Part shown: piece after piece, positions 41,320 through 42,959 of the stretch | Layout of the letters: each line of letters opens with the position of its first letter | How positions within the stretch are numbered: position 1 is the first letter of the stretch | Source of the DNA: Escherichia coli | GTDB lineage: Bacteria > Pseudomonadota > Gammaproteobacteria > Enterobacterales > Enterobacteriaceae | DNA length: 64,000 nucleotides | Assembly: GCF_030384885.1 (NCBI RefSeq) | Contig: NZ_CP128613.1 | Reading direction: 5' to 3' (one strand) | Made by a program: the position numbers and the translations under genes | The notes under the pieces: model-generated | Database searches by the model: none | What the model saw: the letters and a program-made list of their open reading frames with translations, nothing else | What the model was told of the DNA's origin: nothing

Positions 41320-41412
41320 TATATCAATCCATTATTTATATATAAAACAGCATCTATCTTTCGTGATGGTAAAGCATTAGCATTGTATTATAATAATGAC
41401 AAGGAATGTTTT

Positions 41413-42237
41413 ATGCGGTTATTTATTAATGTGATAATTATAGTTTCGATCAGTCAATGCGTGAATGTATTTGCTCAAGATAATGTCATCCGCTATCCCT
41501 GGCGATATGGACGTATTTCTTTAAATGAGAATAATGAGTTTGTGCCTCAAATTATTCATATGCGTGATGATATCTACGGCGTGGGTGAAGCTGGTGCAAG
41601 CCTTAACGATGCGAGAATGGCGCAAAGTGGTGTCGCCGTGAGGCTTAGCGTTATACAGCAGGGGCAGGTGGTGAATGCTTTACTGGATTTCTACAATAGC
41701 AATAATCAACCTGCTTATATCTTTGAAGGTGGTTTGATGCCTTGCAATAAAGCCTTTGACATCACAACAAGCAACATTGTCCTTGATGGGATGTGTGGAA
41801 TTTATGATGGGGTCGATGGCTGGCAAGTTATTCCTGCGGGTGATCATTATAAAGAATCATTTTCACTCACTCAGGCTTTTGAATTTCTGCCGGGAAAACA
41901 TCATTATAAAATTAATGCCGGAAGTTTTATCATCAGAGTCGGGGATGATATTTTTGCAAGAGAGGACGCCGAAAGCATTCTTTTTGATTTGATTAACTGG
42001 CGATATGGCTATGTGCTAAAAAGTTATGAAAGGGTGTCGAAGTGGGATTTAATGGCAGGGACTTATGTACTGCCTGAATACTCGGGGGATAAAAGAATGG
42101 ATGAGTATCGAATTTACTCAAACCAGGTGTCGATTGATCTTAATGGTGACGAGTTAGCACATACGGAGTCCTATCAGTGGCGAATTGATAGCGGAATGAT
42201 CCCGGAAAAATTCAGCGTTCAGGAACTCGCTGAATGA
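41413..42237 (+). CDS. Hypothetical secreted/periplasmic protein (274 aa), function unknown; first gene of an AT-rich islet
   Basis: Track ORF 41188-42237 trimmed to the ATG at 41413 because the upstream part overlaps yebB on the opposite strand and 41413 has an RBS (AAGGAA); N-terminus MRLFINVIIIVSISQCVNVFA|QDN looks like a Sec signal peptide; hand-counted G+C about 38-40%; no recognised family. Confidence 0.65.
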   Translation: MRLFINVIIIVSISQCVNVFAQDNVIRYPWRYGRISLNENNEFVPQIIHMRDDIYGVGEAGASLNDARMAQSGVAVRLSVIQQGQVVNALLDFYNSNNQPAYIFEGGLMPCNKAFDITTSNIVLDGMCGIYDGVDGWQVIPAGDHYKESFSLTQAFEFLPGKHHYKINAGSFIIRVGDDIFAREDAESILFDLINWRYGYVLKSYERVSKWDLMAGTYVLPEYSGDKRMDEYRIYSNQVSIDLNGDELAHTESYQWRIDSGMIPEKFSVQELAE

Positions 42238-42274
42238 ATCGTCCTCTACCTGCTTGCCAGATACAGAGGCGCGG

Positions 42275-42859
42275 ATGAATTTATCAAGCGTATTCAATCA
42301 GCTTTTAATCTCATTTGCTCTTGCCGGGACGTTGATATTAAGCAGCTATCTCATGAAAGCTCACTACCCACGTTTCAGGAAGCCAATTGCGCTCTTTTAC
42401 TTCTTTTTAGCGATTTATACCAGTTATGCTGCCGTTCAGGAGTATGAGTACCACCGCAATAGCTTGACTACGCTCGCAAAAGTTTCTTCGATTCGTTATA
42501 CCAGTAATTTTAAGCGTAGCGCCTCGCACTCCTGCAATTTACTGCGGGGAGGAAGGATTGATTGCTCGGGGCTGTATGCCTATGACCTGACCTGGCAGAT
42601 TGACGGTAAGACCTGGAATTTGCATGTTGAGGACAAGCGTATAAAACCAGGAATCACCATGTGCGTGAAGGTTGTAAAAGATCGCCCCGCCATCGGGAAA
42701 CCCTGTGAAAACGTGTTTTTCAATATCAGCCCTTTGCCGATTCTGATAGCTATATGGGCAATAAGCGCATTTATATTTGCGGTCTTACTCCTTCACCAAC
42801 TAAAAAAATGCCGCGAATGGAAGCACGCCAGCAAGGAACGTGGAAAAATTGGCCATTAG
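42275..42859 (+). CDS. Hypothetical inner-membrane protein (194 aa; 201 aa if the TTG at 42254 is used), function unknown; second gene of the islet
   Basis: ATG at 42275 preceded by GAGG at 5-nt spacing; hydrophobic segments LLISFALAGTLILSSYL, IALFYFFLAIYTSYAAV and PLPILIAIWAISAFIFAVLLL; four Cys in the predicted periplasmic domain; basic C-terminal tail; AT-rich. Confidence 0.6.
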   Translation: MNLSSVFNQLLISFALAGTLILSSYLMKAHYPRFRKPIALFYFFLAIYTSYAAVQEYEYHRNSLTTLAKVSSIRYTSNFKRSASHSCNLLRGGRIDCSGLYAYDLTWQIDGKTWNLHVEDKRIKPGITMCVKVVKDRPAIGKPCENVFFNISPLPILIAIWAISAFIFAVLLLHQLKKCREWKHASKERGKIGH

Positions 42860-42959
42860 AAGTCAAAGAAAGAGTGCGATGTAAGGTGATTCATAGAAAA
42901 TTTCAGATACCGTGAGCCAAAGGATTATCAGTTCTGAAATGATTTAATATCATCCCTCG

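Follow-up and report, generated by a model that had tools for sequence, protein, structure and literature searches.

Periplasm-acting metallopeptidases linked to VgrG proteins are described in the pairs VgrG2b-PA0261 of Pseudomonas aeruginosa and Tpe1-Tpi1 of Acinetobacter baylyi, in both of which the enzyme is an HExxH zinc metallopeptidase (PMC6899460). The immunity protein of the Tpi type is the product of the next gene, is exposed in the cell envelope, needs a signal peptide as well as DsbA, and is poorly conserved in sequence (PMC6899460). In a 64,000-nucleotide stretch of the Escherichia coli contig NZ_CP128613.1 (the window), two genes are found between yebB and ruvA, both on the plus strand: open reading frame (ORF) A at 41413-42237, encoding 274 amino acids (aa), and ORF B at 42275-42859, encoding 194 aa. 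The reading that we favour, with a probability of about 0.5, is that ORF A specifies an orphan periplasmic immunity protein against M35-type metallopeptidases and ORF B a separate membrane protein, the two occupying an old variable locus of fixed position.

The likeness of the ORF A family to Tpe-Tpi is one of layout, in that a VgrG with a TTR-like segment is followed by an HExxH protein and an exported protein with conserved cysteines. The partner peptidase of the ORF A family is M35/aspzincin-like, unlike the VgrG2b-type (DUF4157) enzyme of Tpe-Tpi, and it is encoded by a separate gene overlapping the end of vgrG, whereas in VgrG2b it is a fused domain. ORF A itself, unlike PA0261, has no adjacent effector. 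It is regarded as an orphan because no toxin gene adjoins it: no HExxH or type VI secretion system (T6SS) gene lies near it within 39500-45500, and it is likewise toxin-less in E. fergusonii, Escherichia sp. E1V33, Pseudocitrobacter and a metagenome-assembled enterobacterium (L003). Orphan T6SS immunity genes are known from Vibrio cholerae arrays and from the acquired interbacterial defence (AID) systems of Bacteroidales, and are usually close copies of active immunity genes, carried by mobile elements or placed where an effector array ends. ORF A resembles them in having no toxin gene and a neighbouring slot whose content varies (ORF B, an unrelated membrane protein or nothing). Unlike them, it shows no close similarity to a circulating cognate immunity gene, its identity to toxin-linked kin being 20-28%, and it stands between housekeeping genes in a position kept across genera.

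The ORF A family and its metallopeptidase neighbours

ORF A starts with an ATG behind the Shine-Dalgarno (SD) sequence AAGGA (41401-41405). Its hydrophobic residues 1-22 include a signal peptide of residues 1-21 (41413-41475), with VFA followed by QD at the boundary, and the product is predicted to be a Sec-exported periplasmic protein. The mature part has two cysteines, C111 and C128, that do not vary within the subfamily and that align to cysteines of the wider family. RefSeq, in its prokaryotic genome annotation pipeline (PGAP), begins ORF A at 41188; the resulting 349-aa frame overlaps the opposite-strand yebB by about 130 bp, and yebB is cut to 187 aa. The methionine of the 274-aa form is the start of the homologues in Pseudocitrobacter, in the metagenome-assembled enterobacterium and in several E. 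fergusonii records, with signal peptide and conserved SD, and judging from these the 349-aa call is probably an annotation artefact.

Neither ORF A nor ORF B has a match in Pfam, NCBIfam or PADLOC, and RefSeq names both 'hypothetical protein', in agreement with an earlier note on this DNA that could assign neither of them to a named protein. A word-indexed search with ORF A returned only six close clusters, and an exhaustive profile search yielded 41 relatives at E up to 1e-3, the best remote one at 8e-17. The remote relatives are nearly all of 270-315 aa, with N-terminal leaders and shared motifs. When the ORF A subfamily was aligned by hhalign to 27 remote-only members, the two profiles matched at 99.9% (E 4e-33, 248 columns), and a hidden Markov model (HMM) built from remote members alone gives ORF A 112 bits. 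The link thus holds whichever side is used as the profile, and ORF A is a solid but distant member of a family of exported proteins that has no name. A Pfam scan of the 29-member family alignment gave no match, and a search of the PDB with the family profile returned a chance match only and no solved relative.

Seven remote loci of the family were examined (L007, L008, L009, L010, L015/L016, L017 and L018). Directly upstream of the family member, five of them carry a gene for a 160-290-aa HE[ILM]SH protein (L007, L008, L010, L015/L016 and L009). In L007, L008, L010 and L015/L016 this HExxH gene follows the C-terminal region of a VgrG, which includes a short TTR-like segment, and in L009 it follows a similar short segment. 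L007 continues into tssF (E 4e-38). In L018 another putative effector-immunity pair precedes the family member, which lies within a VgrG(DUF2345)/PAAR island, and the sequence of L017 is too short for its gene neighbours to be judged. L009 (351-3127) holds two M35-like/partner pairs in tandem, the second effector being cut to 160 aa just after HELSH, and looks like an effector-immunity array with a degenerating effector.

The same order exists within E. coli. In strain S10 (NZ_CP010229.1; L019 2669-8446), a VgrG is followed by a 262-aa HELTH protein, a 308-aa family member, a 404-aa protein and TssM. The S10-type pair recurs in 197 of the 5,426 complete E. coli genomes (~3.6%), including that of the uropathogenic E. 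coli (UPEC) strain 536 (NC_008253.1 2957317-2959110), and the match covers both genes in 196 of the 197. The second protein of the S10 pair (WP_001402485.1 / WP_001402486.1) falls into the ORF A family with 268 bits against the family HMM. WP_001402486.1 shares with ORF A the length class, the signal peptide and the motifs YGYG, F.N.S, NI.LDYLG, FLPG..Y.IGSLEY and IRSNQV.I.IDG; it differs in lying inside a T6SS cluster, directly after the M35 gene. Since the profile of the ORF A subfamily gives WP_001402486.1 only 35 bits, the subfamily is a distant branch. The M35 gene and its exported partner are named hypothetical in most records.

The nature of the upstream enzyme is indicated by a profile of seven HExxH proteins, which matches two M35 aspzincins of solved structure at their active-site helix, a peptidyl-Lys metalloendopeptidase (1g12, E 3e-6) and the Aeromonas toxin AsaP1 (2x3a, E 9e-4). 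Pfam finds Aspzincin_M35 in these proteins (best i-E 5e-5), with which recent PGAP and UniRef names agree. The profile does not match VgrG2b 6H56, and Pfam finds no DUF4157 in the proteins. In a T6SS context, the order VgrG, HExxH protein and exported partner reads as the standard signature of a periplasm-acting effector with its immunity protein. From gene order alone, we infer a putative immunity role for the family, which ORF A would have retained. The literature search found no account of T6SS effectors of the M35/aspzincin type, nor of any gene located between yebB and ruvA; surveys of T6SS in Shiga toxin-producing E. coli (STEC), enterohaemorrhagic E. coli (EHEC) and Enterobacter list other metallopeptidase effectors (MPTase4, M91 and gluzincin-VgrG), not the M35 one.

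Immunity, decay or another function

On the favoured reading, ORF A would be exported by Sec to the periplasm, where one disulfide, C111-C128, would form. The protein would bind an incoming M35-type metallopeptidase stoichiometrically and block it there, in the manner in which PA0261/Tpi blocks VgrG2b/Tpe. ORF B would be an independent protein of the inner membrane that has a small domain rich in cysteines in the periplasm and is encoded in a swappable slot beside ruvA. A role for it as a second orphan protective protein is conceivable, and decay of the gene is about as likely.

Two observations count for immunity. First, the start region of ORF A, its SD and the upstream sequence are strongly conserved: the divergent intergenic region between yebB and ORF A (41320-41412), which holds the SD, has a mean column identity of 86% across genera, with many invariant positions, and is conserved even in comparison with the metagenome-assembled enterobacterium, whose ORF A is only 49% identical. 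Second, intact ORF A is under purifying selection in several genera. The ratio of nonsynonymous to synonymous divergence (dN/dS) of ORF A is 0.19-0.28, even at a synonymous divergence (dS) of 0.67, and the gene is kept intact in at least four genera. The purifying selection on it is moderate, 3-20 times more relaxed than that on yebB, ruvA and ruvC. Because both ORFs have homologues in other genera and dN/dS below 1, they are genuine genes.

Several points weigh against this reading. With toxin-linked members ORF A shares only 20-28% identity, and no M35 effector with a partner of its own close to the ORF A subfamily was found. The long toxin-less stay of the subfamily at a housekeeping site in several genera would equally fit a changed function. 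Decayed forms exist, namely a frameshifted 212-aa ORF A on 79 contigs, that of strain M863 included, and single-base length variants in two complete genomes. An AlphaFold model of ORF A, made from a 5-sequence alignment, has a predicted local distance difference test score (pLDDT) of 38 and is unusable as structural support, and no experimental work on any member of the family was found in the literature.

For ORF B, three hydrophobic helices are predicted, at about residues 9-28, 38-54 and 156-173, of which the third is strong and the first is confined to Escherichia-type proteins, as well as a basic C-terminal tail. These helices, together with the ORF A leader, support the statement of the earlier note that both products are envelope-targeted. 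Between the second and third helices lies a beta-rich loop of about 100 aa which, since it carries four invariant cysteines (C87, C97, C130 and C144), is probably periplasmic. Only 16 related clusters are known from the search, all in Escherichia or Superficieibacter and none of them informative, and in every locus examined ORF B stands immediately upstream of ruvA. Most relatives are 224-256 aa long, with a C-terminal cytoplasmic extension of about 57 aa that is missing in the Escherichia proteins; a remnant of this extension in another frame at 42860-42950 was considered and rejected, as tblastn found nothing. An AlphaFold model of ORF B has a pLDDT of 59, and a Foldseek search against AFDB50 gave only its own entry as significant. 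More than 20 of the top 50 matches are DUF3592 proteins, which are like ORF B in having a transmembrane helix, a small beta-rich extracytoplasmic domain and another transmembrane helix. These matches are non-significant (E above 0.001, template modelling (TM) score 0.2-0.4), and ORF B has no Pfam match to DUF3592, a family that is itself without a known function.

It is possible, though unlikely, that both genes are functionless leftovers on the way to the deletion that is fixed in E. coli sensu stricto. Such decay would be in keeping with the absence of the block from 99.65% of complete E. coli genomes and with how common frameshifted or truncated alleles are, the 79 contigs with the short ORF A being joined by 102 with a 181-aa truncated ORF B. 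ORF B, with a dN/dS of 0.72 against E. fergusonii, is evolving near-neutrally within Escherichia, where it also has no C-terminal extension, and one or the other gene is missing in Pseudocitrobacter and Superficieibacter. The persistence of ORF A in its genera, at the dN/dS given above and with start, SD and upstream sequence conserved, argues against decay of that gene; and even ORF B keeps its four cysteines and the motif FFN.S.LP..IA.WAI invariant down to 37-40% identity.

Somewhat more doubtful is an exapted ORF A, whose subfamily would stem from immunity proteins but which would now inhibit an endogenous, host or environmental metalloprotease in the periplasm or act as a partner of the yebB enzyme. 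Its stable toxin-less place by yebB across genera, the highly conserved intergenic region that the two genes share, the low identity to toxin-linked members and the failure to find a matching effector all fit this idea. A partnership with YebB is opposed by the predicted locations, ORF A being periplasmic and YebB having no export signal; since YebB has no hydrophobic segment, it is presumably cytoplasmic. Moreover, yebB is universal in E. coli and ORF A is rare, so that yebB does not need ORF A. For another activity of ORF A in general, no positive evidence was found.

Doubtful to a slightly greater degree is a broader proposal, in which the locus would be an integrase-free 'immunity locus' of Enterobacteriaceae, with ORF A as a long-lived, vertically kept, broad-spectrum periplasmic inhibitor of M35 toxins, innate and not cognate in kind, and the small membrane proteins of the slot by ruvA (ORF B and the 228-aa protein of E1V33) as protective factors that homologous recombination through the core genes on either side would have moved between Escherichia species.

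An old variable block at a core site

The earlier note took yebB and ruvA to be direct neighbours in K-12, about 0.6 kb apart. A comparison with a typical E. coli, strain AMA1167, by BLASTN and sliding-window identity bears out the adjacency and corrects the distance: the spacer is 274 bp and contains only the 21-codon yobI. In the window, the starts of yebB and ruvA are 1,707 bp apart with the two co-oriented ORFs between them, as had been noted, and the sequence of this region is identical to that of E. coli strain 2013C-4282 (NZ_CP027579.1). The segment without a counterpart in ordinary E. coli, 41334-42949 (1,616 bp, 41.8% G+C), replaces a 183-bp yobI segment. The yobI spacer was considered as a remnant of the islet and rejected, as it has no DNA or protein similarity to it beyond 77 bp shared at the ruvA promoter.

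The block that separates this lineage from ordinary E. coli is larger, about 2.0 kb (40951-42949). Its right junction is exact at 42949/42950, ten bases upstream of the LexA box of ruvAB. The left limit that the earlier note placed at the yebB start (41319) does not hold: the junction on that side is not clean, nucleotide identity to typical E. coli being down to 59-77% within yebB, from about position 40950 onwards, and the 5' 370 bp of yebB (40951-41319) belong to the block. The dS against the K-12 type is 1.07 for yebB as a whole and 0.16 for ruvA, and by identity and dS the 5' part of yebB is a deeply diverged allele relative to ordinary E. coli. At variable residues, K-12-type YebB is like the protein of the metagenome-assembled enterobacterium and window YebB is like that of Pseudocitrobacter, which suggests two ancient classes of yebB allele.

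Identity to E. fergusonii is mosaic. Against its genome CP057243.1 (L014; window 36275-48000), identity is 98.7-100% from aspS to ruvC, with ruvC itself identical, and 98.2% in ruvA; it is 90.5-94% over the 5' part of yebB, ORF A and ORF B, 86% in znuB and 83% farther on. With typical E. coli, the left flank from aspS to ruvC shares only 92-96% identity; the stretch 42950-43026 matches both typical E. coli and E. fergusonii at 98.7-99%. The islet-specific spacer 3' of ORF B (42860-42949) is the least conserved stretch, with 76.9% identity to E. fergusonii and 13 gaps. This mosaic around ruvABC shows that homologous recombination between Escherichia species has taken place. A local drop to 77-79% against typical E. 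coli, with surroundings at 95-99%, is also seen at 44600-44700, at the 3' end of ruvB and in the ruvB-znuB spacer.

The interval 41320-42960 occurs in 19 of the 5,426 complete E. coli genomes at 94.9-100% identity, in every case on the chromosome and with both genes present. It is absent from the other 5,407 (99.65%), and the objection raised in the earlier note itself, that the genes might be ordinary core genome, thus falls away. At motAB-cheA, an unrelated core locus at a distance of 30 kb, 17 genomes reach 99% identity or more with the window and 16 of these carry the islet, so that the carriers form in essence a single divergent lineage. A record of ORF A also exists for E. coli M863, a clade I strain (PMC4182557), and the carrier lineage is apparently Escherichia clade I. 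Isolate AF39 (NZ_OZ547136.1) clusters with the carriers at motAB-cheA (99.3%) yet is not among the 19; in its stretch 4826000-4842000 (L023) it has a prophage, with an integrase, that abuts yecE and lies near the yebB-ruvA region. Beyond E. coli, the order yebB-ORF A-ORF B-ruvA is found in many E. fergusonii genomes and in the metagenome-assembled enterobacterium (L003/L004), and genes of the islet are likewise present at the yebB-ruvA site in Escherichia sp. E1V33, in Pseudocitrobacter vendiensis and in a metagenome genome of Superficieibacter type. A scan of about 100,000 species-representative genomes, which can miss distant relatives, gave E1V33 and P. vendiensis as its only matches.

The suggestion of the earlier note that the islet was horizontally acquired is supported weakly, and a small foreign cassette recently transferred into the space between yebB and ruvA is improbable. 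In its favour stand rarity in E. coli, the inter-species recombination visible in the mosaic, and base composition. G+C is 41.8% in 41320-42959 as against 50.4% for the window; the hand counts of 38-40% in the earlier note come to 38.5% for the first 200 nt of ORF A and 39.0% for the first 100 nt of ORF B when computed. The comparison of G+C at third codon positions (GC3) with flanking genes that it proposed gives 39% for ORF A against 50-61% in yebC, ruvC, ruvA, ruvB and znuB. In G+C and in ORF A GC3, the interval thus has the atypical composition of a genomic island; the sporadic distribution unrelated to phylogeny that marks such islands is not observed, the carriers being one lineage and the locus syntenic across genera. 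The borders have no flanking repeats other than short chance ones and no integrase, insertion sequence (IS) or tRNA, no dedicated tRNA scan having been made, and no plasmid copy of either protein was found apart from one remote relative of 28% identity. A mobile element was accordingly rejected, as mobility genes, repeats, plasmid copies and an Rfam match are all lacking. Site and orientation are common to several genera, and divergence that runs on into yebB indicates allelic replacement, with no scar of insertion. The locus looks, from these comparisons, like an old variable locus of fixed position, reshuffled through homologous recombination, which E. coli sensu stricto has lost.

Separable genes and their surroundings

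ORF A and ORF B are 37 nt apart. In E1V33, homology to the window reaches as far as 42223, 14 nt short of the ORF A stop codon, and resumes at 42950; its ORF B slot (L005 6854-7540) encodes an unrelated membrane protein of 228 aa that is multi-pass and has a tail rich in cysteines. This protein has several hydrophobic segments, 11 cysteines and no family match, and the only cluster in which it is found counts 10 members, from unclassified Escherichia and one E. coli. In P. vendiensis, ORF A is followed directly by the ruvA promoter without ORF B, and Superficieibacter genomes have ORF B immediately upstream of ruvA without ORF A, yebB being intact or truncated. These arrangements show ORF A and ORF B to be independent modules and the ruvA-side slot to be exchangeable. 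Toxin-immunity loci commonly encode a secreted protein and, next to it, a membrane protein, and the tandem order, short gap, separate SDs and missing terminator would suit a toxin-immunity or secreted-membrane partner pair formed by the two genes themselves, but the genes also occur separately and ORF A is a homologue of the half that is not the toxin in a known type of pair, so that this is very improbable.

Accessory genes are also found on the other side of yebB, between ruvC and yebB. In the metagenome-assembled enterobacterium, this space contains an extra homologue of PstS-family phosphate-binding proteins (497 aa; L003 5753-7246), and in P. vendiensis an extra unassigned 330-aa protein on the opposite strand (L006 4276-5271). 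Such genes in other genera mark the whole ruvC-ruvA interval as a hotspot for small accessory genes.

The left neighbour, yebB (40717-41319, minus strand), encodes a YebB-family permuted papain-like enzyme of 200 aa, matching the NCBIfam equivalog NF008547 at E 8e-115 and 381.5 bits against a curated cut-off of 227. A consensus scan gave no convincing plus-strand sigma-70 promoter for ORF A, and no Rfam match to a structured RNA was obtained in the interval at E up to 1. ORF B has the SD GAGG at 42266-42269. With both SDs, the gap of 37 nt and no terminator predicted between the genes, transcription as the bicistronic unit proposed in the earlier note is plausible in this strain, although the genes, occurring separately elsewhere, are not an obligate pair. 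The spacer downstream of ORF B likewise has no predicted terminator. Just outside the islet lies an intact CTGGATATCTATCCAG (42960-42975), read directly from the letters, which is taken to be the LexA (SOS) box of the ruvAB promoter, and ruvA (43027-43638, plus strand) forms the right-hand core flank. The palindrome of this box with the adjoining T-run (42959-42986) scores as a terminator-like hairpin on the plus strand; as there is no other terminator 3' of ORF B, transcripts of ORF A and ORF B would reach this hairpin and ruvAB.

Allelic replacement at a core site can be seen cleanly in this locus, where a yobI spacer stands against a 1.6-kb two-gene block, with recombination between species of Escherichia. 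The remote relatives of ORF A point to an apparently uncharacterised family of M35/aspzincin effectors with immunity proteins, whose exported partner has no Pfam or NCBIfam model and which is also present in several AT-rich Enterobacterales. For two 'hypothetical proteins' characteristic of a divergent Escherichia lineage and of E. fergusonii, the favoured reading offers a first hypothesis of function. If it is true, an orphan immunity gene would be fixed at a housekeeping site and not on a mobile element, which would bear on how resistance to contact-dependent killing spreads.

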